Of a stretch of DNA of 64,000 nucleotides, positions 2,909 to 38,887 are shown piece after piece. The stretch's first letter is position 1. The number at the start of each line of letters is the position of its first letter. This DNA comes from an uncultured Gemmatimonadota bacterium (lineage in GTDB: Bacteria > JAAXHH01), in assembly GCA_951812955.1 (NCBI GenBank), contig OX638340.1, positions 224,001 to 288,000 on the forward strand. Reading direction: 5' to 3'. Made by a program: the position numbers and the translations under genes. Under the pieces are notes generated by a model that saw only the letters and a program-made list of their open reading frames with translations, had not been told where the DNA came from and made no database searches.

Positions 2909-2937
2909 TTGACAATATGGGGGGTGCTATGTAGTAT
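2909..2937 (+). promoter_or_regulatory. sigma70-type promoter TTGACA-17nt-TAGTAT upstream of mraZ
   Basis: Perfect -35 hexamer (2909-2914), a 17-nt spacer and a TAGTAT -10 (2932-2937). It sits ~125 nt upstream of the mraZ ATG, in the position of Pmra in other bacteria. Confidence 0.6.
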
Positions 2938-2963
2938 AGTGGGTAGAAGTGGGACGAAGTGGG
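2938..2963 (+). promoter_or_regulatory. three direct repeats AGTGGG phased at 10 bp (2938-2943, 2948-2953, 2958-2963): putative MraZ operator
   Basis: The sequence agtgggtagaagtgggacgaagtggg lies immediately after the -10 element. This matches the known architecture of MraZ-binding GTGGG direct repeats with 10-bp periodicity overlapping the mra promoter and transcription start. Confidence 0.55.
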
Positions 2964-3060: not shown

Positions 3061-3501
3061 ATGGTTAACTTCCTGGGTTCATACACCTACACCGTGGACC
3101 ACAAAGGCCGGGTCAATGTCCCTGTGAAGTTTCGCAAGCACATCCGGACCGACGAGGACGACACGCTGATCATCACGCGGGGACTCGATGGATGTCTTTT
3201 CGTCTATCCAATCGACGAATGGGAACAGATCGACACCCGATTGCGAGAACTGCCCGTCACAAGGCAGAACACGCGGATCTTCATCAGGATGCTCTCGTCG
3301 GAGGCCGTGGCAGTCTCCATGGACAAGCAGGGTCGTATCGCCCTTCCCAGGCAGCTGATCGAACGCGCCGGCATTGAAACGGAAGTACTGATCATCGGAA
3401 CGCTTGACCACTTTGAACTCTGGAGTCCCGGGGAGTATGAGAAAGTAATGAACGAATCGGGACATACATACGAAGAGATCGCGGAGTCCCTGTTCGTTTG
3501 A
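3061..3501 (+). CDS. mraZ: transcriptional regulator MraZ
   Basis: Two tandem MraZ/SpoVT-AbrB-like halves, each with the DxxxR signature (TVDHKGRVNVP; SMDKQGRIALP). First gene of the dcw cluster. Confidence 0.9.
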   Translation: MVNFLGSYTYTVDHKGRVNVPVKFRKHIRTDEDDTLIITRGLDGCLFVYPIDEWEQIDTRLRELPVTRQNTRIFIRMLSSEAVAVSMDKQGRIALPRQLIERAGIETEVLIIGTLDHFELWSPGEYEKVMNESGHTYEEIAESLFV

Positions 3502-4511
3502 TGCTTTCCACCCATGCGGCTCCGTTAAATCACGGAATGATCATGGGTCTGGCAGACAAGTACAATCATGTTCCCGTTCTTGCGGGGAAGGTAGCCGAGA
3601 TGCTCGTCTGGAACACTTCCGGCACATATGTAGACGGTACAATCGGCGGAGGCGGTCACGCGCGCGCCATACTGGAGCGGCTTGGCGAATCCGGACGGTT
3701 GATCGGGCTGGACAGGGATTCCGAAGCGGTCGGCGCGGCAGGTGCGCGGCTTGCGCGGGGAAGTACTCCTCGCGTGGAGATCCTGCAACGGGACTATACG
3801 GAGTTGGCGTCCGTGCTGGAAGCGAAACGCATCTCCCGGGTGGACGGACTGATTCTGGACCTTGGCATTTCGTCCTACCAGGTCGATACGCCTGATCGCG
3901 GATTTTCATTCCAGTCCGACGGTCCGCTCGACATGCGCATGGACCGGGGCAAGCCGTTGACCGCGGCTCATATCGTCAACGAAAGTTCCCGGGATGAACT
4001 CGAGCGGATCATACGGGAATACGGCGAGGAACGGCAGGCGCGCGGCGTCGCGAACGCGATCGTCAGAACCCGCGACAGGGCGCCGCTGACTTCCACCGCC
4101 AGGCTGGCTGATACGATCAGGTCCGCGGTCCGCCGCAGATGGGCGGTCAAGTCCTGCGCCCGGGTGTTCCAGGCACTAAGAATCGCCGTCAACCAGGAAC
4201 TGGACAAATTGAAATTGGTTTTGGATACCATGCTTCCCCTCCTGAGCAACCGGGGTCGTTTCGGTATCATATCCTATCATTCACTGGAAGATCGACTGGT
4301 CAAGCGGACATTCGAAACCTGGGCATCGGACTGCATTTGTCCGCCCGGCTTTCCACAGTGCGTCTGCCAGCACAGGCGCGTTGCCGTGCTACATACGAAA
4401 CGGGCCGTCGTGGCCTCCCGTGAAGAAGTCGCGAAAAACCCGCGGGCGCGAAGCGCCAGGTTCCGGATGATTGAACGTTTGCCCGACGATCAACACGCAC
4501 ACTGTAATTAA
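3498..4511 (+). CDS. rsmH: 16S rRNA (cytosine1402-N4)-methyltransferase RsmH/MraW. The start is uncertain: TTG at 3498, ATG at 3501 or at 3537.
   Basis: HVPVL and GTxGGGGH motifs, then SYQVD and DMRMD motifs typical of RsmH. It overlaps the mraZ stop codon. Confidence 0.85.
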   Translation: MMLSTHAAPLNHGMIMGLADKYNHVPVLAGKVAEMLVWNTSGTYVDGTIGGGGHARAILERLGESGRLIGLDRDSEAVGAAGARLARGSTPRVEILQRDYTELASVLEAKRISRVDGLILDLGISSYQVDTPDRGFSFQSDGPLDMRMDRGKPLTAAHIVNESSRDELERIIREYGEERQARGVANAIVRTRDRAPLTSTARLADTIRSAVRRRWAVKSCARVFQALRIAVNQELDKLKLVLDTMLPLLSNRGRFGIISYHSLEDRLVKRTFETWASDCICPPGFPQCVCQHRRVAVLHTKRAVVASREEVAKNPRARSARFRMIERLPDDQHAHCN

Positions 4512-4541
4512 CATCTTTAATTCAGAACGGAGAAGCCCGTC

Positions 4542-4964
4542 ATGAAATCCGCTATCAGATTCCGCAGCGACCACTCGTACATGGGACAATTGATCGGCTG
4601 GATCGGTACGATCGCGCTCGTAACGTCGCTGAGCATGGGTTACATCTGGCACCAGGTGGAAACCACGACGCTGATGCGGGAGATCATCGAACTGAAGGAT
4701 CAGAAAGAAGCCTTGAAAAAGGAAAGCGCCTATTTGCACGTGCGGATCGTTCGGCTCGCGGAACAGCTTCGGAACGAAACAGTGGCCATGAGTCGTTTCG
4801 ATTTGGAACACGCTGCAGTCGGACAGGTTGTGAACATGGATGCGGTAGACACGGCCATGGCTTTGGCCAACACCGAGCCCGATGTAAGGGCGATTGCGGG
4901 TAAGCCGGCGGATGACGCGTTGATCCTTGCCTCGTACCCTGCGGCTCACGTGGATACCCGATGA
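4542..4964 (+). CDS. ftsL: FtsL-like cell division protein (single TM helix plus coiled coil)
   Basis: 140 aa with one N-terminal TM segment (LIGWIGTIALVTSLSMGYIW) followed by a heptad-like coiled coil (REIIELKDQKEALKKESAYLHVRIVRLAEQL). It lies between rsmH and ftsI, where ftsL normally sits. Primary-sequence similarity is weak, as is typical for FtsL. Confidence 0.55.
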   Translation: MKSAIRFRSDHSYMGQLIGWIGTIALVTSLSMGYIWHQVETTTLMREIIELKDQKEALKKESAYLHVRIVRLAEQLRNETVAMSRFDLEHAAVGQVVNMDAVDTAMALANTEPDVRAIAGKPADDALILASYPAAHVDTR

Positions 4965-4976
4965 GGGAATACCGTT

Positions 4977-7040
4977 ATGGTCGCGAAATCCTGTATGCGC
5001 AGACTGACCCTCCTGGCCGTAGTCGGAGTGGTACTGTGTGCAGGTCTCGGGATTCGTATCGCGCTAATTCAGATTCGCGACGGCGAGGCCTACAGGCAGC
5101 GGGCGCGTGACCAACAGCACCGGGTGGTCACCATCGACCCCCGCCGGGGCCGTATCTTCGACCGCAACCGTAACACGCTGGCGCTGAGTGTCGAGTTCGA
5201 CTCCTTCGGTATCCAGGATCTCGACCGGGACCGGTACGGCCCCTCCGATATCGGAAACCTGGCCGTTCAGCTTTCCCAGATCACCGGCGAAGATCCCCAG
5301 CATATCATCGACCGGGTTTCCGAGACCTCCGACTTCAGGTATTTGGTCCGCTGGGTGAATCCCGAAACCAGTGAACGGATTAGAAGCCTCTCCACCTATC
5401 CCTTGTTCGAACCCTATATACGCACGCAAAAGGAAGCCAGGCGGGTCTATCCCTATCGGACCGCGGCCGGCCAGATACTGGGTTTCAGCGTAGATGGTTC
5501 CGGTCGGGCCGGGTTCGAAATGGAACACAACCAGCTGTTATCTGGTTTAGAAGGGTACAGCGTGGTGCAGATAGACGCTCAGCGACGGGCGTATTCGTGG
5601 CTTGATGCCTACCAGAATCCGGCGGAGAACGGCGCGGACGTCGTACTGACGATCGATATCGCTGCCCAGGTTGCCGCGGAAGAGGCGCTGGAGGAGGCGA
5701 TAGCGTGGCACGGGGCGCTCGGCGGTATGGTCATCATGATGGATCCGGCGAACGGCGACATACTGGCCATGGCCAGTTCTCCGGACTTCGATCCGAATAC
5801 ACCGGGACGGTTTCCATTCGAAGCCCAGAAGATCAGGCCGGTGGTGGATATCTACGAACCTGGGTCGACTTTCAAGATCGTAGCAGCGACCGCGGCCCTG
5901 GAGACCGGTGCGTTCTCTCTTGAGGACCGGATCGATACCAGTGCAGGCCGGATCGAGGTGGGCGCGCAGACGATATCAGACCACGAGGTCTACGACGAAC
6001 TGAGCGTACGGGAAGTCATCGAGCGGTCCAGCAACGTGGGTACCGTCAAAATCGCCCTGGCCCTCGGTGAAAAGGAGTTTTTCAAATACACCCGGGCCTT
6101 CGGTTTCGGCATGAAAACGGGCGTGGCCCTCCCGGGCGAGGCAAGAGGTATCCTGCATAAACCGGCCGTTTGGTCCATGTCCACGCTTCCCGCCATGGCC
6201 ATCGGCTACGGGGTTTCCGTCACCGGAGTACAACTCGCGACCGCCTATTGCGCCGTAGCCAACGGAGGCCTGCTCCTGCGACCTCGGATAATCAGATCCA
6301 TCCTGAGAAACGACGGTTCCGTGCAGACCGAACCGCGGTTTGTCGTTCGCAGGGTGATGAAAGAGGAGACCGCCGAAGCCTTACTGGGCGTATTCGCCGG
6401 AGTGGTGGACCAGGGTACGGGCACAAAGGCCGCGGTAACGGGTTTCAAGGTCGCGGGAAAGACCGGCACAGCCTGGAAGACCCGTGAGGACGGCAGGGGA
6501 TACACCAGGAATTACCGGTCGTCGTTTGCCGGGATGTTTCCGGCGAATGACCCGGAAATCGTCGTGCTCGTCATGATCGACGAGCCGAAGAAACGCGGCT
6601 TCTATGGCGGATCCGTGGCCGCGCCGGTTTTCAACAAAATCGTTCGCCGCCTCGTCCATCTGCCGGACGGACCCGTTGAGTCGGTTCCCGAATCCGATGA
6701 CGGCCTGCCCCTTCACCTGGCCTCCATCAAGCCTGGTTCGTCCTCGGGCAGCAGACCGCAGGGTTCTGCTACGGCATCGGGAGGACCGATGACTGGAGAC
6801 TTACTGCAGCTTGGCGGCCACTGGGAAATCGAACGTCCCGGTACCGGGGCGGAACAGGCACCGGTGCCGCTTCCGTCGGTGACAGGCATGAGCGTTAGAG
6901 AAGCCGTAAGGACCCTGGCCGAACAGGGTATTGAAGCAACCATAGTCGGTAAGGGCTACGTCCGACGCCAGATTCCTTCACCGGGCCGCATGGTCTATCC
7001 CGGCGATCGATGCCTCATCGAATGTGGTCCCTACAACTAG
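4977..7040 (+). CDS. ftsI: peptidoglycan D,D-transpeptidase FtsI (class B PBP3) with a C-terminal Ser/Gly-rich linker and one PASTA domain
   Basis: N-terminal TM anchor. Transpeptidase motifs STFK (PGSTFKIV), SxN (SSNVG) and KTGT (AGKTGTA). C-terminal ...PLPSVTGMSVREAVRTLAEQGIEATIVGKGYVRRQIPSPGRMVYPGDRCLIE fits the PASTA fold. Confidence 0.85.
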   Translation: MVAKSCMRRLTLLAVVGVVLCAGLGIRIALIQIRDGEAYRQRARDQQHRVVTIDPRRGRIFDRNRNTLALSVEFDSFGIQDLDRDRYGPSDIGNLAVQLSQITGEDPQHIIDRVSETSDFRYLVRWVNPETSERIRSLSTYPLFEPYIRTQKEARRVYPYRTAAGQILGFSVDGSGRAGFEMEHNQLLSGLEGYSVVQIDAQRRAYSWLDAYQNPAENGADVVLTIDIAAQVAAEEALEEAIAWHGALGGMVIMMDPANGDILAMASSPDFDPNTPGRFPFEAQKIRPVVDIYEPGSTFKIVAATAALETGAFSLEDRIDTSAGRIEVGAQTISDHEVYDELSVREVIERSSNVGTVKIALALGEKEFFKYTRAFGFGMKTGVALPGEARGILHKPAVWSMSTLPAMAIGYGVSVTGVQLATAYCAVANGGLLLRPRIIRSILRNDGSVQTEPRFVVRRVMKEETAEALLGVFAGVVDQGTGTKAAVTGFKVAGKTGTAWKTREDGRGYTRNYRSSFAGMFPANDPEIVVLVMIDEPKKRGFYGGSVAAPVFNKIVRRLVHLPDGPVESVPESDDGLPLHLASIKPGSSSGSRPQGSATASGGPMTGDLLQLGGHWEIERPGTGAEQAPVPLPSVTGMSVREAVRTLAEQGIEATIVGKGYVRRQIPSPGRMVYPGDRCLIECGPYN

Positions 7041-7090
7041 CCGATTCATCGTTCATGAGGGTGAGGACGACGGCATAGAGGGTCAAGGCG

Positions 7091-8635
7091 TTGAAACAGC
7101 TTTCGAAATTGCTGGCCGCGTTACCTCAAAAAAAAGTCATCAGCCGGCTGAATGCCTCGAACCGGGCGGACCGGGCGGACCGGGCAGTCCAGGCGGACTA
7201 TGCGGACCATGCGGACCATGCGGACCAGGAGATTGGAACCATAGTCCATGACTCGAGGTCCGTAGAGCCAGGCGATGTTTTTGTCGCGCTCCGCGAGCCT
7301 TCGGGCCGCGACGGCCGCAGGTACGCCCGCGACGCGGTTGCACGGGGCGCTTCGGTAGTGGTACAGGAAAGCGAGGAGGGCCTGGATGACGCGATCGTGA
7401 TAAGCGTTCCGGACACTTCCAGGGCTCTGGGCTTGATGGCCGCGGCGTACTACGGTCAGCCGGCGACCGACCTTTGTCTGATCGGTATTACGGGGACCAA
7501 CGGAAAGACGACCGTGTCATTGCTGGTCGAGGCTATCCTTCGGGAATGTGGCTGGGCCGTGGGCGGGATCGGCACGCTGGGCAGCCGGTTCATGGGCAAT
7601 GTGCTCGACTGGAAACTGGGCCACACCACGCCCTATCCGATGGAGCTGCACGGCACCCTGAGGAAGATCCGGGACCGGGGAGGCGAATGCGTCGTCATGG
7701 AAGTATCCTCTCACAGCCTGGTCTGGCAACGCCTGTCCGGCCTGCGATTCACCACGGGCGTCTTTACGAATCTCTCCAGGGAACACCTGGACGACCACAA
7801 GACCTTCGACGCTTACAAGGAAGCGAAGATGGTGCTTTTCTCGAAATACCTCGAGGAGAAAGGCAACGCCGTCCTGAACATGGACGATCCGGCCTATGTC
7901 CATTTCAAGGACGCATCGCGCGCACAGGTGCGATCATACGGACTGGACAAGAAGGCTGACGTCCGCAGGGCGGGTCCAATAGGATACTATGCTGACCGGA
8001 CCGTCATGAAAGTGCAGATTCAATCCGGTCCCCCTTTCAACGTGACCTTGCCTCTCCTGGGTCGTTTCAACGCGTACAACGCCCTGGCAGCCATATCCGT
8101 GGGGCTGGGATTCGGCATCGACTGTGAACTGATGAGCCGGGCCATGTCACGAGTCAGGGTACCCGGCCGGCTTGAGCGCGTCGAGGCTGGACAGCCTTTC
8201 AACGTGCTCGTGGATTTCGCCCATACGCCCGACGCACTCGGCGCCGTACTGTCCGCCTGCCGGGAATGGACCCGTGGAAGCCTGACCGTCGTATTCGGTT
8301 GCGGCGGGGACCGTGATCCCGGCAAGCGGCCGCTGATGGCCCGTGCGGCGTCCACCCACGCCGACGTAGTCATCGTGACGACCGACAACCCGAGAACGGA
8401 ACCGCCCGACCGGATCATAAGAGATATCGAGCCGGGTCTCCTGCCCCACGTCCGGTCCCATATAGTCCAGGACCGCGGCGAAGCGATCCATAAGGCCCTC
8501 AGCGATGCCGGCGAAGGAGACACCGTGCTGATCGCCGGAAGAGGAGACACGGCCTACCAGATCGTTGGCGAATCGCAAATCGAGTTCGACGACCGGTTCA
8601 AGGCCAGGGAATGTCTCGAGGCGCACTATGGATAA
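7091..8635 (+). CDS. murE: UDP-MurNAc-L-Ala-D-Glu:meso-DAP ligase MurE. Apparent TTG start; the N-terminus carries an (X-Ala-Asp)7 tandem-repeat insertion.
   Basis: Mur ligase ATP site GITGTNGKTT, the N-terminal DSRSVEPGDVFVAL motif, and a C-terminal region consistent with a DAP-adding MurE. Confidence 0.85.
   Translation: MKQLSKLLAALPQKKVISRLNASNRADRADRAVQADYADHADHADQEIGTIVHDSRSVEPGDVFVALREPSGRDGRRYARDAVARGASVVVQESEEGLDDAIVISVPDTSRALGLMAAAYYGQPATDLCLIGITGTNGKTTVSLLVEAILRECGWAVGGIGTLGSRFMGNVLDWKLGHTTPYPMELHGTLRKIRDRGGECVVMEVSSHSLVWQRLSGLRFTTGVFTNLSREHLDDHKTFDAYKEAKMVLFSKYLEEKGNAVLNMDDPAYVHFKDASRAQVRSYGLDKKADVRRAGPIGYYADRTVMKVQIQSGPPFNVTLPLLGRFNAYNALAAISVGLGFGIDCELMSRAMSRVRVPGRLERVEAGQPFNVLVDFAHTPDALGAVLSACREWTRGSLTVVFGCGGDRDPGKRPLMARAASTHADVVIVTTDNPRTEPPDRIIRDIEPGLLPHVRSHIVQDRGEAIHKALSDAGEGDTVLIAGRGDTAYQIVGESQIEFDDRFKARECLEAHYG
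7163..7225 (+). repeat. in-frame tandem repeat of 7 degenerate 9-bp units (cgggcggac x2, cgggcagtc, caggcggac, tatgcggac, catgcggac x2) inside the murE 5' region
   Basis: Read directly from the sequence. It encodes RAD-RAD-RAV-QAD-YAD-HAD-HAD. The other reading frames of the same stretch give Pro/Gly repeats, as expected for a nucleotide-level repeat. Confidence 0.9.
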
Positions 8636-10049
8636 CCGCAATGGGTCGGCGGCGCCCACGTTGCTGGAAATAGCCGATATCATGGGCGGGAGACTGCATG
8701 TATCCATCCCCGCGCTTGGTCACAGACGGATCACGGGCGTTTGTTCCGATACGCGGCGTATCGCGGAGGGCAACCTGTTCGTCGCGATTGCAGGTGAACG
8801 GTACGACGGTCACGATTTCGTGCCTGAAGCCATGCGCTCGGGAGCGTGTGCGTCGCTGGTTGCGGCCGATTGGCTCGCGGGTCGGCCGGACCGGGAGACT
8901 CCGGATGACGCGCGGATCGTCGTGCCGGAAGTACTTCCGGCCCTGCAGGCATTCGCCGGTTGGCACCGAAGACGATTCGATCTGCCGGTAATCGCGGTTA
9001 CGGGTTCCAGCGGGAAGACCACCACGAAGAACATGATGGCCGCCGTGCTGGGAGAGCGCTACAGGGTTTTCAAAACACCGGGGAACCTGAATAGCCAGCT
9101 GGGAGTCTCCGAATCGCTGTTCTCGCTGCACGAAGGCCACGGCGCGGCGGTACTTGAACTGGGTATGAACCGGGCAGGTGAACTGACCCGGCTGTCCCGA
9201 ATGACCTGTCCATCCGTTGGCGTGATTACCAATGTGGGGCCCGCGCATATCGAGTTTTTCGAATCGATCGAAGGAATCGCCCGGGCCAAGGGCGAAATTC
9301 TCGACAATCTGCCAGGGGCGGGAAGCGCGGTGCTAAACGCCGACGACCCCCTCGTCATGAAGCAGGCCGTTCGCAGTCCGGCGCGAGTCGTTACGTTTGG
9401 ACGCAGCGAGGGAGCCGACGTAAGGCTGGCAAGCGCAACGACCGCACTGACCGGATCGACTTTCGCCTTGTCGGATGGCGCATCCTTTCGAATAAACCTG
9501 TTGGGGGAACACCAGGTCATGAATGCAATGGCCGCCGTGGCGGTGGGCAGGATTTCGGGAATCGACGACCAGGACATCGCTCGCGCGTTGCGAAACTTGG
9601 ATCCCACGCCCATGCGCATGGAATACAGGAAGGTGGGCGCCGTGCACCTGATCGACGACACATACAATGCCAATCCGTCGTCGATGAAGGCGGCCCTGGA
9701 CACGCTGGCGACTGCCGGAGGCCGTAAACTGGTCGTCCTCGGGGATATGCTGGAACTGGGCGAACTGGGCATGGCGGCGCACAGGGAAATCGGAAAACGC
9801 GCCGCGGATGTGGCGGAACGGATCGTCACGGTGGGAGAACTGGCCCGCGAAATCGCCGGAGCCGCGATGCATGCGGGGATGCCGGCGTCGCGCGTCTCGT
9901 CCTGCCTTTCCAACGACGAGGCGGTCGCTGAGGTAATGGCGGGAATCGAAGCCGTCGACGTCATACTCGTCAAGGGATCGCGCGGCATGCGGATGGAAAC
10001 GATCGTTGAATCCCTGGAACTAGCACTGGGCCATACCGAAACGGAGTGA
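8628..10049 (+). CDS. murF: UDP-MurNAc-tripeptide:D-Ala-D-Ala ligase MurF
   Basis: ATG at 8628 overlaps the murE stop within ATGGATAA. Mur ligase P-loop VTGSSGKTTTK; overall MurF-like sequence. Confidence 0.85.
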   Translation: MDNRNGSAAPTLLEIADIMGGRLHVSIPALGHRRITGVCSDTRRIAEGNLFVAIAGERYDGHDFVPEAMRSGACASLVAADWLAGRPDRETPDDARIVVPEVLPALQAFAGWHRRRFDLPVIAVTGSSGKTTTKNMMAAVLGERYRVFKTPGNLNSQLGVSESLFSLHEGHGAAVLELGMNRAGELTRLSRMTCPSVGVITNVGPAHIEFFESIEGIARAKGEILDNLPGAGSAVLNADDPLVMKQAVRSPARVVTFGRSEGADVRLASATTALTGSTFALSDGASFRINLLGEHQVMNAMAAVAVGRISGIDDQDIARALRNLDPTPMRMEYRKVGAVHLIDDTYNANPSSMKAALDTLATAGGRKLVVLGDMLELGELGMAAHREIGKRAADVAERIVTVGELAREIAGAAMHAGMPASRVSSCLSNDEAVAEVMAGIEAVDVILVKGSRGMRMETIVESLELALGHTETE

Positions 10050-10053
10050 TTCC

Positions 10054-11196
10054 GTGTTACATCAGCGAATCGATCTTCCACTGCTGGTTTCATCCCTGCT
10101 CCTCCTGGGCGTGGGATCGGTCATGATTTACAGCGCGAGTTCAGCCGTTGCCGAAGAGATGTTTTCCGGCGACAGTGGTTTCTTCGTCAAACGCTACCTG
10201 GTCAGGTTGATTCTCGGAATCGTCATCCTGGTCCTGTTCGCCAGCCTGAATTACCAGAAACTCGGGAAGTGGTCCCCATTACTGGTTGCCGTCGGCATGG
10301 TGTTTCTCGTGCTCCTCTTTGTTCCCGGTATCGGCCTGACCATCCGGGGCGCGACCCGCACCTTGAGCATGTTCTCCACGACGATTCAGCCCGCGGAAGG
10401 GATCAAGGTCGCCCTGGTCATATACCTGGCCTACTGGCTGGACAGGCGCCAGAACGTCATGGACCGTTTCTTCATCGGATTTCTGCCCGGAATAGCGGTG
10501 GTCGCGGCAGCCTGCCTGCTGATTGTCCTGCAGCCGGATTATGGTACCGCGATCGTGCTTGCCGCAACCTCGTTCGCGATGCTCTACATCGGCCGCGCGC
10601 GGATGCTGCACCTGGCAAGCACCGTGGGAATCATGTTGCCGGTCCTTTTCTACAGACTGTATTCGTCGGCTCACAGCCGGCAGCGTCTCATGGCTTATTT
10701 CGATCGGCTTTTCGGCAATTCCGTCGATCAGTCCGTCAATCTGCAAGGTGCGGACTACCAACTGCAACAAGCGCTGATCAGTCTGGGTACAGGCGGCGTA
10801 TTTGGAAACGGTCTGGGACAAAGCCGTCAGAAGTTTCTGTTCCTTCCCGATCCCCACACTGACTTCGTGTTCGCGGTGATTGGCGAAGAACTCGGTTTTC
10901 TGGGGTCGATGGCGGTGCTGGGCCTCTTTGTCGTATTCGCCTGGAGGGGTTTCAGGGTCGCCCGCATGGCACCTGACACCTTCGGGTTTTTCCTGGCGTC
11001 CGGGCTTACTATTCTTATCACACTGCACGTGCTGGTGAACATCGGTGTGGTGACGGGCATGCTCCCCACCACGGGGCTTCCGCTACCCTTCCTGAGCTAT
11101 GGCGGGTCCTGGCTGCTTTTCTGCATGATGAGCATCGGGATACTGCTGAACATTTCCAGAATGACATACCGGTGCCAGAGACTGAAATATGACTGA
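10054..11196 (+). CDS. ftsW: SEDS-family peptidoglycan glycosyltransferase / lipid II flippase FtsW
   Basis: Ten-TM SEDS protein with the conserved PDPHTDFVFAVIGEELGFLG loop and C-terminal LPLPFLSYGGS. It immediately follows murF, so mraY and murD are absent here. Confidence 0.85.
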   Translation: MLHQRIDLPLLVSSLLLLGVGSVMIYSASSAVAEEMFSGDSGFFVKRYLVRLILGIVILVLFASLNYQKLGKWSPLLVAVGMVFLVLLFVPGIGLTIRGATRTLSMFSTTIQPAEGIKVALVIYLAYWLDRRQNVMDRFFIGFLPGIAVVAAACLLIVLQPDYGTAIVLAATSFAMLYIGRARMLHLASTVGIMLPVLFYRLYSSAHSRQRLMAYFDRLFGNSVDQSVNLQGADYQLQQALISLGTGGVFGNGLGQSRQKFLFLPDPHTDFVFAVIGEELGFLGSMAVLGLFVVFAWRGFRVARMAPDTFGFFLASGLTILITLHVLVNIGVVTGMLPTTGLPLPFLSYGGSWLLFCMMSIGILLNISRMTYRCQRLKYD

Positions 11197-12607
11197 TCGG
11201 CAAAATACGGACATTGCATGCCGTCACGCGCATTTCATCGGCATAGGCGGAATCGGAATGAGCGGTCTGGCTGAACTGATGCTCGAATTTGGTTACGAAG
11301 TGAGCGGATCGGACCTGCGGCGAACACAGCTGACGGACCGGCTCAGCGGTCTCGGAGCGTCCGTCTTCCACAGCCACGACCCGGGCAACGCGGCGGGTGC
11401 GGACCTGATCGTGTACTCTTCCGCAATTCCGGAGGACAATCCCGAACTCGAAGCGGCCCGTAGGCATGGCGTACGTTTGGTCCGCCGCGCCGAACTGCTC
11501 GGTATACTGATGCGCGGGGCACGAAGTATCGCCGTGGCGGGCGCTCACGGCAAGACGTCCACGTCGGCGATGATCGTAAACGTACTGGCCGCCGCGGGCC
11601 TGGATCCGACCGCCGCCATAGGCGGGATCATGACGGAGAACGGATCCAACGTCCGGCACGGCAGCGGATCGTGGATGGTCGCGGAAGCCGATGAATATGA
11701 TCGTTCGTTCCATGCGCTGGCTCCGACTACGGCAGTAATCACATCGGTGGACGCAGACCACCTGGAATACTACGGATCGCAGGAAGCCATAGATGCAGCC
11801 TTCACTACTTTCGCCCATCTCGTACCCGAGGACAGGCCGTTGTTCGTGTGTGCCGACGACCCGGGCATCCGCAGGATCAGTCCCGCGCTGCGCCGACGGC
11901 TGGTGACCTACGGCCTTTCCGGTCACGCCTGCATCCGGGCAGACCGGGTGGCGACCGAAGGCTGGAGCATTTCCGCCGAAGTATTCGTGCGGGACGTTCC
12001 GGCCGGCCGGCTGGTTTTGCCTCAGCCCGGCGAGTGCAACCTGGTCAATGCCCTGGCGGCCATCAGTGTGGCCGACTACCTCGAAATACCCGTCGAGCGG
12101 ACCCTGGCGGCCCTGGCGGATTACCGGGGACTGAGGAGACGTTTCGAAGTACTCGGAAGGATTCAAGGTGTGGAGGTAGTGGACGACTATGCCCACCATC
12201 CCGTCGAAATCGAGGCGGCGTTGCTCGCCCTGTCAAACGCGGGAGCCCGGCGCATGTTCGTCATATTCCAACCCCACCTCTTCAGCCGAACGCAGCATCT
12301 GTGCCGCGAATTCGGGCGCGTACTCGGGCGGTTTCCCGCATATCGGAAGATCGTTACGGACGTGTACCCCTCCAGGGAAACGCCGCGGGAGGGGGTTACG
12401 GGTGAGTTGATCGTCAGGGCGTCGAGCGCATTCGGAGGAGGCGTCGCGTACATGCCGGACAAGAACCGCATCGCGACCACCCTGGTGGACGATCTCGAGA
12501 AAGGGGACATGGTGCTGACGCTCGGCGCGGGGGACATCGACGAAGTAGGACGGCAGGTTTGCGAACTACTTAGGAAACGCGGGGTCAGGTCCCATGCATG
12601 TATATGA
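11189..12607 (+). CDS. murC: UDP-N-acetylmuramate:L-alanine ligase MurC
   Basis: N-terminal HFIGIGGIGMSGLAE (the MurC Rossmann signature) and Mur ligase P-loop AGAHGKTSTS. It overlaps the ftsW stop within ATGACTGA, so there is no murG between ftsW and murC. Confidence 0.9.
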   Translation: MTDRQNTDIACRHAHFIGIGGIGMSGLAELMLEFGYEVSGSDLRRTQLTDRLSGLGASVFHSHDPGNAAGADLIVYSSAIPEDNPELEAARRHGVRLVRRAELLGILMRGARSIAVAGAHGKTSTSAMIVNVLAAAGLDPTAAIGGIMTENGSNVRHGSGSWMVAEADEYDRSFHALAPTTAVITSVDADHLEYYGSQEAIDAAFTTFAHLVPEDRPLFVCADDPGIRRISPALRRRLVTYGLSGHACIRADRVATEGWSISAEVFVRDVPAGRLVLPQPGECNLVNALAAISVADYLEIPVERTLAALADYRGLRRRFEVLGRIQGVEVVDDYAHHPVEIEAALLALSNAGARRMFVIFQPHLFSRTQHLCREFGRVLGRFPAYRKIVTDVYPSRETPREGVTGELIVRASSAFGGGVAYMPDKNRIATTLVDDLEKGDMVLTLGAGDIDEVGRQVCELLRKRGVRSHACI

Positions 12608-13520
12608 AATGCTCAGTGGGTCGATCGCTTCCGAACGGCTGCGGTGCGACGAGGGCCTTGATCGGCATTCTACTTACCGGGTCGGAGGGCCGGCGGACGT
12701 GATGTGCCTGCCTCGAACCCGATCGGAACTGCTGGATGTCGTCACCGCTGCAAGCGTGCGCGGGATACCCTGGCTGGTGGTGGGAAACGGGAGCAATATC
12801 CTCTTCTCGGATGACGGATTCCGCGGTCTGGTGATCAAGATAAGAGGCGCGGTCCCGGTGGAGGGGACGCTGTGGCAATTGGCGCAGGAAGGTGATTTCA
12901 TCCGGGCGGGCGCGGGCGTCAGCCTGCCTCGACTCGCCAGGTCGGCGGCGGCCGCGGGACTGAGCGGACTGGAGTTCTGCACCGGGATACCCGGCGTGGT
13001 TGGCGGATCCATCCGGGGCAACGCCGGCGCTCACGGGAGTGATCTGGGCGCTGTAGTGGAGTCTGTGGAAATGATTCGGCCATCCGGTGACATCGTGACG
13101 ATCAGGGCTTCGGAGGCCGGGTTTTCCTATCGGGAAAGTGAAATTGAGCCGGACAGCATCGTGACCGGGGCGGTGTTCAGGCTGACGCCGGATGAACCGG
13201 AGAACGTGCAAGAACGCATAAGGGTCTTCACCGAATACAGAAAGCGCACGCAGCCGTCCTCCGATCAGAGTGCCGGGTGCATGTTTAAAAACCCGGTGGG
13301 CGACAGTGCCGGAAGGCTGATCGACGCGGCCGGGTGCAAAGGACTTCAGGTCGGCGGATCGAGGGTGTCCGAAATCCACGGTAATTTCGTAATCAACCTG
13401 GGTGGTGCAACGGCGTCGGACGCGTTGCGGTTGATCGACCTGGTTCGCGAACGGGTCTTCGAGCGAACCGGCGTAGCCCTCGAACTCGAGGTGCGCGTGA
13501 TGAAATCGGGCGTGGTATGA
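12594..13520 (+). CDS. murB: UDP-N-acetylenolpyruvoylglucosamine reductase MurB
   Basis: FAD-binding PCMH-type domain (YRVGGPADVM...GNGSNILFSD) and the C-terminal MurB domain (GCMFKNP, RVSEIHGNFVIN). Confidence 0.85.
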   Translation: MHVYEMLSGSIASERLRCDEGLDRHSTYRVGGPADVMCLPRTRSELLDVVTAASVRGIPWLVVGNGSNILFSDDGFRGLVIKIRGAVPVEGTLWQLAQEGDFIRAGAGVSLPRLARSAAAAGLSGLEFCTGIPGVVGGSIRGNAGAHGSDLGAVVESVEMIRPSGDIVTIRASEAGFSYRESEIEPDSIVTGAVFRLTPDEPENVQERIRVFTEYRKRTQPSSDQSAGCMFKNPVGDSAGRLIDAAGCKGLQVGGSRVSEIHGNFVINLGGATASDALRLIDLVRERVFERTGVALELEVRVMKSGVV

Positions 13521-14359
13521 ATTCGAACAGGATGCGTTTCACATTCCGTTTGATGACCGGACTTGCGATTGTCCTGCTCGCCTCAGGTACGACGGCCGGA
13601 CTGGTCATGGGAGGCCTGGCGCTGTCCAGGTGGACTGAGAACTCGCCGGTTTTCAATCTGGACGCCATCGTCGTCGAGGGGAACAGGATCGCTGGCAAGG
13701 AGGACATCATCCGGGTTTCCGGCCTCGAAATGGGCAAGAACATCTGGTCGGCCGACCTCGAGGAGACCGGACGGCGACTCATGCTCGACACGCGGTTCGA
13801 TCGGGTCGCGCTGAGCAGGAGGTTACCCGGTACCGTCGTCGTTCGGGTGAAGGAACTGCAGCCCATCGCCATTGTACAGCTGGATCGCCTCTACGGAGTC
13901 TCCGAACGCGCCGAGCTGATCCCGCTTTCACCGGGAAACGGGTTGCCGGACCTTCCCGTGATTACCATCGACGCTTCAGGTTTCCGGCCGGAGTCAGGCG
14001 CCGCGGAATCGCGGGACCTTCATTTCGAAACGCTCAGGGAAGCCATGCTGGTCGATCCCGAGATGGGCCGCGCCCTCTACCTCATGCGGGTGCTCAGAGC
14101 GATGTCTCCGGGGATGTACGACGAGTTATCCGAGATTCACATGTCCAGACCGAATGACCCGATCGCCTACATGGTGGAAGGCGGATTGGCCATACGGTTC
14201 GGAACGGGACACTACCCCCGGAAGATCGAGATGCTCAGACGAACTGTGGAGCGGTTGGAAGCCGACGCCATCAGGACCCGGTTGATCGATCTGAGGTTCA
14301 AGGACCAGGTTATCGTCCGCCCGGTTGTATCCAGCCGGTCCCTGGACAGGCGTTCGTAG
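13517..14359 (+). CDS. ftsQ: cell division protein FtsQ (TM plus POTRA domain)
   Basis: Single TM helix then a POTRA-like segment (IVVEGNRIAGKEDIIRVSGLEMGKNIWSADLEE) and a FtsQ beta domain. It occupies the position between murB and ftsA and overlaps the murB stop (ATGA), so no ddl is present. Confidence 0.75.
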   Translation: MNSNRMRFTFRLMTGLAIVLLASGTTAGLVMGGLALSRWTENSPVFNLDAIVVEGNRIAGKEDIIRVSGLEMGKNIWSADLEETGRRLMLDTRFDRVALSRRLPGTVVVRVKELQPIAIVQLDRLYGVSERAELIPLSPGNGLPDLPVITIDASGFRPESGAAESRDLHFETLREAMLVDPEMGRALYLMRVLRAMSPGMYDELSEIHMSRPNDPIAYMVEGGLAIRFGTGHYPRKIEMLRRTVERLEADAIRTRLIDLRFKDQVIVRPVVSSRSLDRRS

Positions 14360-14377
14360 CGGTAAAAGGAGTTTCGC

Positions 14378-15598
14378 ATGGCCCGTGAATGTATAGCTGC
14401 ACTCGACCTGGGCACGACCAAAACGGTCGTGTTGATCGGCGAGATGACTGACGCCGGCCTCCGGATCCTGGGCGAGGGTACGTGCCGGTCCCAGGGCCTC
14501 CGGCGAGGCGTCCCGGTCAATATGGACGAAGCTGCCCGTTCGATCGCGGAGACGATTCAGGTCGCGGAACAGGCGGCCGAAGCCAGGATAAGCGAGGTCT
14601 ATGTCGGGTGTTCCGGCGATCACATCGAAAGTGTCAACAGCAGAGGCGTCGTGGCCATTTCGTCCGACGGGGGACGGGGCGTGACGCGTAAGGACGTTGC
14701 TCGCGCCTTCGATTCCGCGACGGCCCTGAGGATTCCCATGGACCGCCAGGTCATCCATGTGCTCGCACAGGACTATATCGTGGACGACCAGTGCGGTATC
14801 CGCGACCCGTGCGGCATGTCCGGCGTCCGGCTTGAAGTGCTGGTGCACATCGTGACCGGGGCGATCACCTCGTTGCGGAATGTACGCAATTGCATCATGC
14901 AGTCCGGAATTCAAGTCCGGGAAATCGTCCTCGATTCGCTCGCCGCGAGCCAGGCGGTGCTCACATCCGACGAAAAAGAGCTGGGTGTCGTTCTCCTCGA
15001 CCTCGGCGGGGGCACCACGAACATCGCGCTGTTCCAAGACGGCAGCATCCGGCATTCGTCGGTTATTCCCGCCGGAGGAATCAACCTTACGAACGATATC
15101 GCGATCGGTCTCCGCACCCCGCATGAAGATGCCGAACGAATAAAGCGGCACTACGCGAGCGCGGTATATGTCCGCTCGGAAAGGGACAACATGATTGAAG
15201 TACCCGGGGTCGGCGGACGCGAGTCGCGTATGGTGACGCGGGAGGAATTGGCGTTCGTGGTCGGCCCACGGATCAAGGAGCTTCTGGTCCTCGCTCGGGA
15301 GACGATCAGGAACAGTGGATTCGAACACCTGGTCCGCACCGGTATCGTTATCACAGGGGGCGGTGCGCTGATGCCGGGTATTGCGAAACTGACGGAACAG
15401 GTCTTCGGCATGTCCGCGAAAATCGGTGCGCCGGAGGAAGTTCACGGCCTGGCCGATGATGGGAACGCCCCCCTGTACGCAACCGGTGTAGGCTTGTTGC
15501 GCCACGCAGCGGACAGCTCGTCAGGAAAAAAGTGGCACCATGATACGGAAGGAGGATGGCTGGATCGTGTGAGAAGCCGGATCGTAGCCATGTTGTAG
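14378..15598 (+). CDS. ftsA: cell division protein FtsA
   Basis: Actin/Hsp70-fold motifs IAALDLGTTKTVVLIGE, DLGGGTTNIALF and VITGGGALMPGI. Lies directly upstream of ftsZ. Confidence 0.9.
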   Translation: MARECIAALDLGTTKTVVLIGEMTDAGLRILGEGTCRSQGLRRGVPVNMDEAARSIAETIQVAEQAAEARISEVYVGCSGDHIESVNSRGVVAISSDGGRGVTRKDVARAFDSATALRIPMDRQVIHVLAQDYIVDDQCGIRDPCGMSGVRLEVLVHIVTGAITSLRNVRNCIMQSGIQVREIVLDSLAASQAVLTSDEKELGVVLLDLGGGTTNIALFQDGSIRHSSVIPAGGINLTNDIAIGLRTPHEDAERIKRHYASAVYVRSERDNMIEVPGVGGRESRMVTREELAFVVGPRIKELLVLARETIRNSGFEHLVRTGIVITGGGALMPGIAKLTEQVFGMSAKIGAPEEVHGLADDGNAPLYATGVGLLRHAADSSSGKKWHHDTEGGWLDRVRSRIVAML

Positions 15599-15666
15599 CA
15601 CACACCATGCGCTATCGTACGGATTCGGCGGTTTGCTAACTCAAACCCCACAGAAGGAGGCAGGAA

Positions 15667-16839
15667 ATGTCTACTTTCGACTTTGATGCGGAACCGGGAT
15701 TGTTTGCCCGCATGAAAATAATCGGCGTAGGCGGCGCAGGAAAGAACGCCGTCAACCACATGGTTGAAATCGGCGTCCCGGGCGTTGATTTTCTAGTCGC
15801 CAACACCGACGCGCAGGACCTGGCGGGTTCCAATGTGAAGTACAAGATACAGCTGGGACAGGAAACTACCCGTGGACTCGGCGCCGGCGCTAATCCCGAC
15901 GTGGGCCGCAAAGCCGCGGAGGAAAGCCGGGACGAAATCGCGGAACACCTGACCGACATCGACATGGTGTTCATCACGGCGGGTATGGGGGGAGGCACGG
16001 GAAGCGGCGCCGCGCCGGTGATTGCCCAGATTGCGAAGGAACTGGGTGTGCTGGCCGTCGGCGTCGTGACCAAGCCGTTCGCGTTCGAGGGACCCAAGCG
16101 TGCGGCGAACGCCGAGACCGGGCTCTCAGCTTTGAAGGAACATGTAGATACGGTGGTCATCATACCAAACCAGAAACTGAAGGAGGCCGTGAGCCGCAAC
16201 ACCACATTCAAAGACGCGCTCAAGGTGGCCGACGAAGTCCTGTTGCAGGCCACGCGCGGCATTTCGGACCTGGTTACACTGCCCGGATTGATCAATGTCG
16301 ATTTCGCCGATATCAGGACGACCATGGAGAACAAGGGCGAAGCCCTGATGGGAACCGGCGAAGCCGATGGCGACAAGCGTGCGCTGGAAGCGGCGGAACG
16401 GGCCATGCGGCACCCGTTGCTGGCGGACATGGACATCGACGGGGCCAAGGATATTCTGCTCAATATATCGGGCGGCCAGGACATGACCCTGTTCGAAGTG
16501 GAAGAGGTGATGACCACGGTTCAGGCGGCCGCGGGACATACCAACATCATCATGGGTACGGTCCTCGACGAAAGCCTCGACGGCAAGGTCCGCGTAACGG
16601 TGATCGCCACGGGGCTGGACCAGTCGATGGCTGCCCCTGACGATATGTTGACGCGTAACATCCTGAAGTTTCAGCCGGACCGCCCTAACGAACTGGAAAC
16701 GCCGGCCTTTCAGCGTGTCAAGCGCAACGGGTTCGATACGGAAGAAGTGACCGTCGGCGACCCTTCTGACGACGCGGTCGACAACAACGGGCTGGACGTG
16801 CCGACCTACATGCGTCGCAGGCGGGCTTTCGGTTCGTAG
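15667..16839 (+). CDS. ftsZ: cell division GTPase FtsZ
   Basis: Tubulin signature GGGTGSG (GMGGGTGSGAAPV), N-terminal KIIGVGGAGKNAVNHM, and a conserved C-terminal tail (DVPTYMRRR). Confidence 0.95.
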   Translation: MSTFDFDAEPGLFARMKIIGVGGAGKNAVNHMVEIGVPGVDFLVANTDAQDLAGSNVKYKIQLGQETTRGLGAGANPDVGRKAAEESRDEIAEHLTDIDMVFITAGMGGGTGSGAAPVIAQIAKELGVLAVGVVTKPFAFEGPKRAANAETGLSALKEHVDTVVIIPNQKLKEAVSRNTTFKDALKVADEVLLQATRGISDLVTLPGLINVDFADIRTTMENKGEALMGTGEADGDKRALEAAERAMRHPLLADMDIDGAKDILLNISGGQDMTLFEVEEVMTTVQAAAGHTNIIMGTVLDESLDGKVRVTVIATGLDQSMAAPDDMLTRNILKFQPDRPNELETPAFQRVKRNGFDTEEVTVGDPSDDAVDNNGLDVPTYMRRRRAFGS

Positions 16840-16902: not shown

Positions 16903-16931
16903 TTGACAGACCCGCGTCGGCGCGGTATTTT
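16903..16931 (+). promoter_or_regulatory. TTGACA-17nt-TATTTT element in the ftsZ-valS spacer. It is either a valS promoter or, because the spacer forms a 5-bp GC hairpin (ccgcg/cgcgg) followed by TATTTT, a weak intrinsic terminator for ftsZ.
   Basis: Read from the sequence. The -35 hexamer is perfect and the spacer is 17 nt. Confidence 0.3.
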
Positions 16932-17079
16932 GAGGCAGGCGATTTTCGCGTTGCTGCTTTCAAGATACCGTCCCGATGGAGGGCGTAGTCTTACCTGTTC
17001 CGGTATACAGTCTGATTACGGCCATTCCATAACCTGTTCTATTTAGTAACGCTCGATACGACAGGGAGAAACATCCTAG

Positions 17080-20633: not shown

Positions 20634-21668
20634 ATGCGTTTTATCCTGCCGGACTTCTTTTCTAATGATATCGGCATCGATCTGGGTACGGCCAATACGC
20701 TCGTATATGTCCGTGGCAGAGGCATTGTGATCAACGAGCCATCCGTGGTGGCCGTCAATACCAAGTCCGGGAAAGTCGTCGCCGTCGGTGCCGAGGCTAA
20801 AGTCATGCTCGGAAGGGAGCCGCCCGATCTCAAGGCGCACCGGCCGTTGCGCGATGGCGTGATTGCCGACTTCGAGTATACGGAAGCGATGATTCGATAC
20901 TTCATCCGCAAGGTCCTCAAGAATTCATTCTTCATTCGGCCACGCGTCGTGGCATGTATTCCCTCGGGAGTGACCGACGTTGAAATGAGGGCGGTCCGGG
21001 ATTCGGCGGAGCGAGCGGGCGCCAAGGAAGTGATGTTGATATCCGAGCCCATGGCGGCCGCTATCGGTTGTTCGTTGCCCGTGGATGAACCGGTGGGCAG
21101 CATGATCATCGATATCGGCGGCGGGACGTCGGAGATCGCCGTGATCTCCCTTGGCGGCATCGTGACGGCAAAGTCGGTACGCATCGGCGGCGATGAAATG
21201 GACGAGGCAATCATCAACCACATGAAGAACGACTGCAACCTTCAGATCGGCTACAATATGGCCGAACAGATCAAGTGGAATCTCGGGTCGGCCTATCCGG
21301 TGTTCGACAAGGAACTGGATATGACGGTAAAGGGGCTCGATCTGATCGACAGGATACCACGTTCTGTAGTTGTCGATTCCCTGGCGATTCGCAGGGTACT
21401 TTCCCAGCCGCTCGACGGGGTGATCATGGCAGTGCGGCAAACCCTGGAATTGACACCGGCGGAACTGGCGGCCGATATTATCGATCGCGGTATCATCATA
21501 AGCGGAGGCGGGTCCCGGCTGCCCGGCCTGGACAGGCAGATCACGAAGGAGACCAAGCTGCCGGTAAGGCTCGATGAGGAGCCTATGACGTCCGTTGTTC
21601 GGGGAGCGGGAAAGATCATAGAGAACTTTGCCGCTTACGAGACTATGCTGAGCGTCCTGAAGGACTAG
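20634..21668 (+). CDS. mreB: rod-shape determining actin homolog MreB
   Basis: Motifs IGIDLGTANTLVYV and DIGGGTSEIAV; 344 aa; followed by mreC and mreD. Confidence 0.95.
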   Translation: MRFILPDFFSNDIGIDLGTANTLVYVRGRGIVINEPSVVAVNTKSGKVVAVGAEAKVMLGREPPDLKAHRPLRDGVIADFEYTEAMIRYFIRKVLKNSFFIRPRVVACIPSGVTDVEMRAVRDSAERAGAKEVMLISEPMAAAIGCSLPVDEPVGSMIIDIGGGTSEIAVISLGGIVTAKSVRIGGDEMDEAIINHMKNDCNLQIGYNMAEQIKWNLGSAYPVFDKELDMTVKGLDLIDRIPRSVVVDSLAIRRVLSQPLDGVIMAVRQTLELTPAELAADIIDRGIIISGGGSRLPGLDRQITKETKLPVRLDEEPMTSVVRGAGKIIENFAAYETMLSVLKD

Positions 21669-21669
21669 C

Positions 21670-22485
21670 ATGTTCCGGTTCTTTTACGTTCTGTATCACC
21701 AACGCCAGTACACAGCTTTCGCGCTCGCCATGGTCATCTCGATCCTGCTTCTGACGGCGTCCCCGCAGCGGCAGATCGGTGTCATGCGGATCGTCTGGTT
21801 GACTGTGCTGACGCCTTTTCAGGAAGCGTTCGCCTTCATTCCGTCGTATTTCAACCTCAAATCCGAAAACCAGCTGCTGCGACAGAAACTCGTCCAGATG
21901 CAATTGCAGACCGCCGATCTCGAGGAACGAAGATTTGAAAACCAGCGGCTGCGCGGGCTCCTCAGTCTGAAGGACAGAAAGAAGTATACCTATGTGCCCG
22001 CCGAAGTCGTCGGCTGGAATACCGATCAGAGGCTGAACACCATTATCATCGATGTCGGTCGTTTCGATCAGATCCGCAAGTACATGGCCGTAGTGATGGA
22101 AGACGGTGTCCTGGGTAGAATCATCGAAGTCGGCCTGACTTCGTCCTACGTGCAATTGCTTTCCGACAGAAACTGCCGTATCAGCGGCCTGGTCCAGCGA
22201 AGCCGGGAACAGGGAATCATCCGCTACCAGAATGAAGCGTTGTATATGCAGTTGCCATTACGGGCAGACGTCCGTCTAGGCGACCGCGTGGTGACATCCG
22301 GCCTGGGGGAGACCTTTCCTTCGGGATTGCCCGTTGGCAGTATAAGCCGGATCGCACTCGGAAGCCGGAACCTTTTCAAGCAGGTAACGATCACTCCCGC
22401 GGTGGAACTGAATCGTCTGGAGGAGGTGTTTGTGATCGCGGGTGAAGAAACACCTGCCGCGGCCGATTCGCTCCAGGTCGAGTAA
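21670..22485 (+). CDS. mreC: rod-shape determining protein MreC
   Basis: N-terminal TM, a coiled coil, then a beta-rich C-terminal domain (VVTSGLGETFPSGLPVG). Positioned between mreB and mreD. Confidence 0.8.
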   Translation: MFRFFYVLYHQRQYTAFALAMVISILLLTASPQRQIGVMRIVWLTVLTPFQEAFAFIPSYFNLKSENQLLRQKLVQMQLQTADLEERRFENQRLRGLLSLKDRKKYTYVPAEVVGWNTDQRLNTIIIDVGRFDQIRKYMAVVMEDGVLGRIIEVGLTSSYVQLLSDRNCRISGLVQRSREQGIIRYQNEALYMQLPLRADVRLGDRVVTSGLGETFPSGLPVGSISRIALGSRNLFKQVTITPAVELNRLEEVFVIAGEETPAAADSLQVE

Positions 22486-22526
22486 TCTCGGGTTCGACGA
22501 GCCGGTTTTTATGATCCAGCTATTCC

Positions 22527-23027
22527 ATGCACTTAAAACACGCTATCCTACTGTTCCTGGCATTTGTAATCGACAGTACCTGGGGACACGAAATCGCCAT
22601 ACGGACTATCAGGCCGGATTTCGTACTGATGATCCTGATCTTTGGCGCGATGGGATCGGGCGCCTTCTGGGGGACCATCCTGGGCTTCAGCGTAGGGCTC
22701 ATGGAGGATTTCAACAGCACGCCTGTGAACCTGGGACTCAATGCCATGTGCAATACGCTGATCGCATACGGCGTGGGAATTGCCGGAAAAACGCTCTACA
22801 GGGACAGTCTCTCTACCCTGCTGCTCACGCTGCTTGCCGCCAGCCTGGTCCACGCCGTCATTTACTGGCTGGTATTCACCCGGTTCCAACTGGCTGAATC
22901 TGTATTCATGCTGGCAACGGTCTCATTGCCCACGATGCTTTACACCGTCTCCGTAGCCCTGTTGCTCGTGCTCGGATTGACCTATCGACAGGGACAGATC
23001 AATGTCCGGTGGCTTTTCCCAGAATGA
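22527..23027 (+). CDS. mreD: rod-shape determining protein MreD
   Basis: Small 166-aa polytopic membrane protein lying between mreC and mrdA. Confidence 0.7.
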   Translation: MHLKHAILLFLAFVIDSTWGHEIAIRTIRPDFVLMILIFGAMGSGAFWGTILGFSVGLMEDFNSTPVNLGLNAMCNTLIAYGVGIAGKTLYRDSLSTLLLTLLAASLVHAVIYWLVFTRFQLAESVFMLATVSLPTMLYTVSVALLLVLGLTYRQGQINVRWLFPE

Positions 23028-24822: not shown

Positions 24823-24841
24823 GAAATACGCCTGAAATCCC

Positions 24842-26059: not shown

Positions 26060-26091
26060 ATCCCATCTCCCGTCGCGAACAAGGATATAAA

Positions 26092-27966: not shown

Positions 27967-27995
27967 AACCCCTCCGTTTCACATTCAGGCGGGAG

Positions 27996-29039: not shown

Positions 29040-29051
29040 TAAAACAACGGA

Positions 29052-38885: not shown

Positions 38886-38887
38886 CC

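Follow-up and report, generated by a model that had tools for sequence, protein, structure and literature searches.

A reduced dcw gene order without mraY, murD, murG and ddl, conserved across a clade of uncultured marine bacteria

The dcw cluster, so called after division and cell wall, contains a block of genes, mraY-murD-ftsW-murG, whose order ranks with the most stable known in bacteria and whose constancy has been used to argue for co-translational assembly or a fixed stoichiometry of the products. The reference layout of the whole cluster is the Escherichia coli type, mraZ-rsmH-ftsL-ftsI-murE-murF-mraY-murD-ftsW-murG-murC-ddlB-ftsQ-ftsA-ftsZ, which we also met in four of the loci compared below (L034, L166, L167 and L170). 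Some members of the cluster, namely ddlB, murB and murC, are frequent escapees from it (PMC8871954). Here, we describe the dcw cluster in a 64,000-nucleotide (nt) stretch of DNA from an uncultured Gemmatimonadota bacterium (assembly GCA_951812955.1, contig OX638340.1, positions 224,001 to 288,000), referred to below as the window, in whose coordinates all positions are given. The cluster lies at 3061-16839 and is an ancient, clade-diagnostic gene-order variant of the known dcw cluster rather than a new system: the slots for mraY-murD, murG and ddl are empty, and the genes that would normally flank them have become direct neighbors.

As judged from the listing of open reading frames (ORFs) and from Pfam and NCBIfam assignments, the cluster consists of 12 co-directional genes on the plus strand, in the order mraZ-rsmH-ftsL-ftsI-murE-murF-ftsW-murC-murB-ftsQ-ftsA-ftsZ. 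The likeness to the canonical cluster extends to the first and last genes, the strand, the relative order of the 12 kept genes, the tight or overlapping junctions, and a predicted promoter with an MraZ-type repeat box on the 5' side of mraZ. Thus the 5' end has mraZ-rsmH followed by ftsL-ftsI (the FtsL assignment being based on position and a weak match), the 3' end has ftsQ-ftsA-ftsZ on the same strand, and murE, murF, ftsW, murC and murB stand between ftsI and ftsQ in their canonical relative order. The presence of murB is shared with many non-enterobacterial clusters, while the E. coli-type order is without it.

The difference from the canonical cluster, which in its complete form has 15-17 genes, is concentrated at three junctions, and at all three the expected genes are missing. 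In the slot of mraY and murD, murF is separated from ftsW by a spacer of 4 nt (10050-10053, plus strand; the last base of the murF TGA is 10049, and ftsW begins with a GTG at 10054). In the slot of murG, ftsW and murC overlap by 8 nt, ATGACTGA (11189-11196, plus strand), with the murC ATG at 11189 and the ftsW TGA at 11194-11196. In the slot that is frequently occupied by ddl, murB and ftsQ overlap by the 4 nt ATGA (13517-13520, plus strand), the ftsQ ATG starting at 13517 and the murB TGA lying at 13518-13520. An earlier note on this DNA, made from the sequence alone, had described both the gene order and the three junctions; the Pfam and NCBIfam calls on the ORFs bear out the order, and on direct reading the 4-nt gap, the ATGACTGA overlap and the ATGA overlap proved exact.

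Is this arrangement a property of one genome or of a lineage? A scan of GTDB with the MurC protein of the window, with one genome per species, returned 13 relatives whose MurC is 76-97% identical; all further matches were at 47% or below. All 13 species representatives agree with the window in gene order and in its tight junctions, and 4 of the 13 are 'chromosome: 1' records of 3.8-4.0 Mb. Complete chromosomes of the clade include OY762445.1 (MurC 97% identical to that of the window), OZ220749.1, OZ241838.1, OY843748.1 and ERZ25068633 ctg160181. A protein search with FtsW widened the clade down to 55% FtsW identity and added three contigs (FtsW 55-63%, MurC 47-56% identical) with the order prfA-prmC-proC-mraZ-...-murF-ftsW-murC-murB-ftsQ-ftsA-ftsZ-valS as far as the contigs reach; the loci L171 and L172, which also belong to the clade, show the same order as far as they reach, into ftsW. 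Altogether, the order and the tight junctions are shared by all 20 related loci retrieved. The dcw proteins of the clade are at most 47% identical to anything outside it.

The contrast with other phyla can be put in numbers if only loci with a scorable junction are counted. In all 18 scorable clade loci the gene after murF is ftsW, and in none (0/18) is it mraY, whereas in other phyla the corresponding counts are 0/44 and 43/44. Likewise, ftsW is followed by murC in 18/18 clade loci and by murG in 0/18, against 2/49 and 47/49 elsewhere. The third junction is less telling: murB is followed by ftsQ in all 16 scorable clade loci and by ddl in none of them, against 4/29 and 18/29 in other phyla. 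Because of these counts we regard the mraY-murD and murG gaps as distinctive and the ddl gap as commonplace. The comparison of dcw order among related genomes that the earlier note had called for therefore finds the reduced order in every scorable clade locus, and its suggestion that the order may be lineage-diagnostic stands for the mraY-murD and murG gaps, where the nearest outgroups (L166, L167 and L170) are canonical; it fails for the ddl gap, since 11 of the 29 non-clade loci are also without ddl at that place.

The members of the clade are uncultured and marine, and many come from sponge and coral metagenomes. Their records are filed variously as Gemmatimonadetes, Candidatus (Ca.) Latescibacterota, candidate division Zixibacteria, or plain 'bacterium', and a search of the literature on Latescibacteria peptidoglycan and on the metagenome-assembled genomes (MAGs) of the clade found nothing relevant. 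One clade member, L012 (CBDAUD010000002.1, a 1.4-Mb contig), deviates at the 3' end of the cluster. In its region 12330-14700 there is no ftsA, ftsQ ending at 13172 and ftsZ starting at 13298, and ftsZ itself is broken up into a pair of ORFs that overlap (13298-14038 and 14035-14469). Either an indel error of long reads or real decay of both genes could account for this.

The direction of the change can be read from the outgroups. L166 and L167 are nearest to the clade both by FtsW and over all dcw proteins (mean identity 45%), and both have the canonical murF-mraY-murD-ftsW-murG-murC-murB-ftsQ; L170, from a complete Ca. Latescibacterota genome (CP070677), is canonical as well. A published reconstruction places a complete dcw cluster in the last bacterial common ancestor, with a later history of gene loss and delocalization (PMC8871954). 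Since the outgroups are canonical and the reconstructed ancestral cluster is complete, the reduced order is derived; it arose before the radiation of the clade.

If four steps of the pathway to lipid II are missing from the cluster, it must be asked whether the pathway is in use at all. For every gene scored, the ratio of nonsynonymous to synonymous substitution rates (dN/dS) was 0.05-0.45 in three pairwise comparisons, with murB, murC, murE, murF, ftsW and ftsI among the genes scored; rsmH and murC failed in some pairs, each being scored at least once. All 12 genes are thus under purifying selection. In addition, Pfam shows mreBCD-pbp2-rodA, the genes for elongation, to be complete and intact at 20634-26059. 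Considering the purifying selection and the intact elongation machinery, peptidoglycan synthesis is evidently in use, and it therefore needs MurD to act between MurC and MurE, D-Ala-D-Ala as a substrate for MurF, and the lipid II made by MraY and MurG as the substrate of FtsW and RodA. Hence, from the selection on their pathway partners, mraY, murD, murG and ddl are almost certainly encoded elsewhere in the genome.

We therefore favor, with a probability of roughly 0.85, the explanation that this is a genuine dcw operon from which mraY-murD, murG and ddl were removed in an ancestor, these genes now being expressed from elsewhere. In the clade ancestor, the four genes would have left the slots that they originally occupied, and their neighbors on either side would have been re-joined as translationally coupled pairs. 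The 12 remaining genes would form one co-directional unit under a promoter with a three-repeat GTGGG MraZ operator, and this unit would supply the divisome core (FtsL, FtsI, FtsW, FtsQ, FtsA and FtsZ), together with MurB and all but one of the four Mur ligases. The remaining ligase, MurD, as well as D-Ala-D-Ala ligase, MraY and MurG, would come from one or more loci at a distance of over 10 kb on the upstream side or over 47 kb on the downstream side, and the expression of these relocated genes would be uncoupled from the dcw promoter. We infer the existence of the genes elsewhere, their relocation instead of loss, and the regulatory consequence.

The neighborhood of the cluster was searched in some depth for the four genes. 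A Pfam scan of the sizeable ORFs of the window found none of them. For a six-frame tblastn search of the window, MraY, MurD, MurG and Ddl from the canonical cluster L034, verified by NCBIfam equivalog models, served as baits: those of MraY, MurG and Ddl gave no match at E<1, and that of MurD recovered the paralogs MurC, MurF and MurE only, at 25-30% identity. The genes on the 3' side of ftsZ are valS, a PHP-domain gene, mreB-mreC-mreD-pbp2-rodA, lgt, pfkA, tpiA and secG, followed by transporters and redox enzymes. The upstream side was walked in L171 and L172, of which one is a 3.93-Mb clade chromosome and the other a contig of the wider clade.

Several results of this search, and some properties of the cluster itself, weigh against the favored explanation. 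The 10 kb upstream of prfA in L171 and L172 contain none of mraY, murD, murG and ddl, so that these genes of the clade are not within about 10 kb upstream (in these relatives) or 47 kb downstream of the cluster. A search with MraY of the nearest outgroup L167 listed 120 matches, all at least 65% identical and none on a clade contig; such a search is unable to reach a clade sequence below 65% identity, and the matches listed belong to lineages of the FCB group (Fibrobacterota-Chlorobiota-Bacteroidota) labelled KSB1, Calditrichota, Latescibacteria and Zixibacteria. With none of the clade's four genes located, relocation is something that we infer from the state of the pathway. Moreover, the promoter, operator and terminator described below are pattern matches, and the transcription of the 12 genes as one unit, to which gene spacing and a terminator-like site point, is a prediction. 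The whole region examined around the cluster, about 74 kb, amounts to some 2% of a genome of about 3.9 Mb. A further scan, of metagenomes with a partial PrfA, gave among the matches listed genes for release factor 1 (RF-1) from other phyla, at most 71% identical, and no clade contig.

Some candidates were set aside in the course of the search. Two MraY matches labelled 'Latescibacteria' might have been taken for stand-alone mraY loci; both turned out to lie inside the dcw clusters of other lineages (L168, which is without murD, and the canonical L170). Within the window, three ORFs without a Pfam match have sizes near those of MurG, MurD and Ddl, at 28002-29210 (minus strand), 38852-40195 (plus strand) and 46297-47265 (minus strand), and were rejected as antisense shadows. 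The real genes that they shadow are pfkA (27900-29039, plus strand), a gene for a CNNM/CorC transporter (38888-40204, minus strand) and one for a pyridine-nucleotide disulphide oxidoreductase (46000-47307, plus strand). The shadow ORFs are 322-447 codons long and their translations are rich in arginine, histidine and aspartate; in DNA of 60% G+C, the longest ORF misleads.

Within the favored explanation there is a special case in which the missing genes did not scatter. The four could lie together, in ancestral order, as a complementary mini-cluster mraY-murD-murG-ddl at a second locus, produced either by duplication of the dcw cluster with reciprocal loss or by transposition of a block. The three slots were emptied without scars or leftover fragments, the missing set includes both lipid-linked steps, and a single duplication with reciprocal loss would be a simpler account of this than separate excisions at three places. 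In the regions searched, however, no second locus was found, and the stepwise erosion seen in other lineages, where L168 is without murD only and L022 is without mraY, murG and ddl, fits independent escapes of single genes at least as well. We consider the mini-cluster a possibility to be kept in mind, and on present evidence a rather doubtful one.

A more radical alternative is that the clade has truly lost MraY, MurD, MurG and Ddl in their canonical forms, with normal lipid II either not made at all or made by substitutes that are non-homologous or very divergent; in a variant of the same idea, the retained Mur enzymes and those of the SEDS (named after shape, elongation, division and spore formation) and penicillin-binding protein (PBP) families act on a different precursor. 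What speaks for such a loss is negative results, namely that the four genes were not found in about 74 kb and that no clade MraY was among the best 120 MraY matches. Considering how small a part of the 3.9-Mb genome (about 2%) was covered, and that the MraY search is blind below 65% identity, these negatives carry little weight. Against them stand murB, murC, murE, murF, ftsW, ftsI, pbp2 and rodA, all intact and with purifying selection, which would be senseless without the activities of MurD, MraY and MurG; true loss and its variant, taken together, are very improbable. Finally, there is the rival reading of an assembly or binning artefact, with the four genes really present in the cluster and the contig mis-joined or collapsed at all three junctions. 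Nothing was found to speak for it, and it can be dismissed: the ORFs at the junctions are frame-consistent and overlap by start and stop codons, and the same junctions recur in 20 independent loci, which come from different projects and assemblers and include single-contig chromosomes of 3.7-4.2 Mb and species at about 50% protein identity. That every assembly should have been mis-joined in the same three-fold way is not credible. The claim of a clean absence rather than an assembly gap is accordingly upheld by a layout common to short-read MAGs, long-read chromosomes and relatives at 55% FtsW identity.

Returning to the operon itself, its genes are for the most part firmly assigned. The first, mraZ (3061-3501, like all that follow on the plus strand), matches PF02381 with E 1e-31 and TIGR00242 with 136 bits (cut-off 98), and rsmH, also called mraW (3498-4511), matches TIGR00006 with 316 bits (cut-off 154). 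The true start of rsmH may lie a few codons on the 3' side of the TTG at 3498, because relatives align only from about residue 9-13. The putative ftsL (4542-4964) is assigned from its position between rsmH and ftsI, with a sub-threshold match to TIGR02209 (E 2e-5); its ortholog in L080 has weak FtsL/DivIC matches in Pfam. The class B PBP gene ftsI (4977-7040) has the Pfam domains PBP_dimer and Transpeptidase and a C-terminal PASTA domain. Next come murE of the meso-diaminopimelate type (7091-8635; NF001126, 477 bits, cut-off 373) and murF (8628-10049; TIGR01143, 407 bits, cut-off 289). Although the longest ORF of murF opens with the TTG at 8565, the most likely start is the ATG at 8628, in an overlap ATGGATAA with the murE stop.

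The second half of the cluster begins with ftsW (10054-11196), a SEDS glycosyltransferase gene with 347 bits to TIGR02614 (cut-off 337.5) and a match to PF01098. It is followed by murC (11189-12607; TIGR01082, 442 bits, cut-off 335), murB (12594-13520; NF010480, 324 bits, cut-off 259), ftsQ (13517-14359; Pfam POTRA_1, E 6e-12), ftsA (14378-15598; Pfam FtsA and SHS2_FTSA) and ftsZ (15667-16839; Pfam Tubulin and FtsZ_C).

A promoter scan found a sigma-70-like site on the 5' side of mraZ (2909-2937, plus strand; TTGACA, 17 nt, TAGTAT) with 10 of 12 consensus positions, likely the equivalent of Pmra. Directly on its 3' side, reading of the sequence revealed GTGGG three times in direct repeat at a period of 10 bp, GTGGGtagaaGTGGGacgaaGTGGG (2939-2963, plus strand), which we take to be a putative MraZ operator by analogy with those of E. 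coli and of Bacillus and other Firmicutes. The three-repeat box stands 106-122 nt (mostly 122) 5' of the mraZ ATG in 16 of the 18 clade loci checked, and similar repeat boxes occur in the outgroups L167 and L168. Thus the promoter with direct-repeat boxes, to which MraZ is predicted to bind, is a dcw feature present in the window and conserved across the clade. Spacing between genes is at most 68 nt throughout the cluster, with four or five start/stop overlaps. After ftsZ, a pattern scan found a terminator-like GC hairpin with a T-rich tail (16912-16935, plus strand), a consensus match and likely the 3' end of the operon; terminator-like sites in the region are no more numerous than in shuffled sequence.

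The surroundings of the cluster are also conserved. The genes mreB-mreC-mreD-pbp2-rodA and lgt (20634-26925) lie 3.8 kb on the 3' side of ftsZ, beyond valS and the PHP-domain gene, and the linkage dcw-valS-mre is kept across the clade. On the 5' side, L171:1-9904 and L172:1-9967 are syntenic, with genes for a glycosyltransferase of family GT2, one or two GT9 proteins (of the heptosyltransferase family), RNase G, rplU, rpmA, a 740-residue phosphoglucomutase/phosphomannomutase (PGM/PMM) protein, a SurA-like peptidyl-prolyl isomerase, and rpmE. The GT9 and SurA genes upstream of prfA suggest that the envelope may be diderm and bear lipopolysaccharide.

Farther from the cluster, the window has three paralogous genes for family-5 solute-binding proteins (SBP_bac_5), within 30354-35250 and 51668-53311. 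A tRNA-Leu(GAG) at 30311-30394 overlaps the longest-ORF start of the first of them, and this gene must therefore start further downstream. Other genes are a PhyH-dioxygenase/HEAT-repeat fusion (56123-57523, plus strand), a large DUF6785/DUF6784 membrane protein (57618-59588, minus strand) and a sulfatase (59682-61031, minus strand). Nowhere in the window did a match to an Rfam family attain the gathering score.

What does the reduced cluster mean for the wider question of why dcw order is so stable? Here ftsW keeps its place without all three of its usual neighbors, and the new order has been stable over deep divergence, which makes the clade a counter-example: the adjacency is not required. 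The arrangement can also serve as a rare-genomic-change marker for a lineage, marine and sponge-associated, whose classification is poor and whose members are currently spread over three phylum names. It reveals no new mechanism, and the pattern may already be contained in the supplements of broad surveys of dcw synteny.

Partial versions of the same process can be found elsewhere. In L022 (5955-13076 of the MAG 'bacterium SKW228', JAOADG01), the order is murF-murD-ftsW-murC-murB-ftsQ with overlapping junctions, so that mraY, murG and ddl are absent and murD is kept; L022 is unrelated to the clade (MurC 40% identical), and the reduction of its cluster was independent. In L168 (8051-13322) and L169, murF is followed by a 570-nt gap and then by mraY-ftsW-murG, murD being gone and the junctions tight. 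These two loci are metagenome contigs from JGI and ENA, and NCBI labels the MraY of the lineage Ca. Latescibacteria (MAG TPA). Unlike the window cluster, L022 and L168 are each without a subset only of the four genes, murF does not adjoin ftsW in either, and they are not close relatives by sequence. A third case is L053:8761-12248, from a MAG labelled Pseudomonadota, in which ftsW, a 106-nt gap, murC, a 196-nt gap and ftsQ follow one another, with murG, murB and ddl missing between them. Since L022, L168/L169 and L053 all show partial versions, erosion of the cluster is recurrent across lineages, and the clade of the window is its most extreme case among the lineages sampled. The dispersal that the earlier note had called unusual is indeed so for the mraY-murD and murG gaps, which are rare elsewhere; with the ddl gap common and partial erosion in L022 and L168, it differs from other cases in degree and is not unique.

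Among well-known systems, the dcw cluster of the Bacillus subtilis type is reduced too: murF, murC and ddl are encoded elsewhere, and the divisome genes stay. Unlike in the window cluster, however, it is the complementary set that has left the cluster in Bacillus, which keeps mraY-murD-spoVE-murG together, exactly the block that is broken up in the window. More generally, dcw gene order is not conserved in Gram-positives (PMC10214165), and the genes are dispersed in Cyanobacteria and form sub-clusters in Chloroflexi and Planctomycetes (PMC8871954). The window cluster resembles those of the last three phyla in that genes have been delocalized from an ancestrally complete cluster. It differs from them in that their clusters are largely shattered, whereas here four genes have been removed and the other 12 remain in one tight operon.

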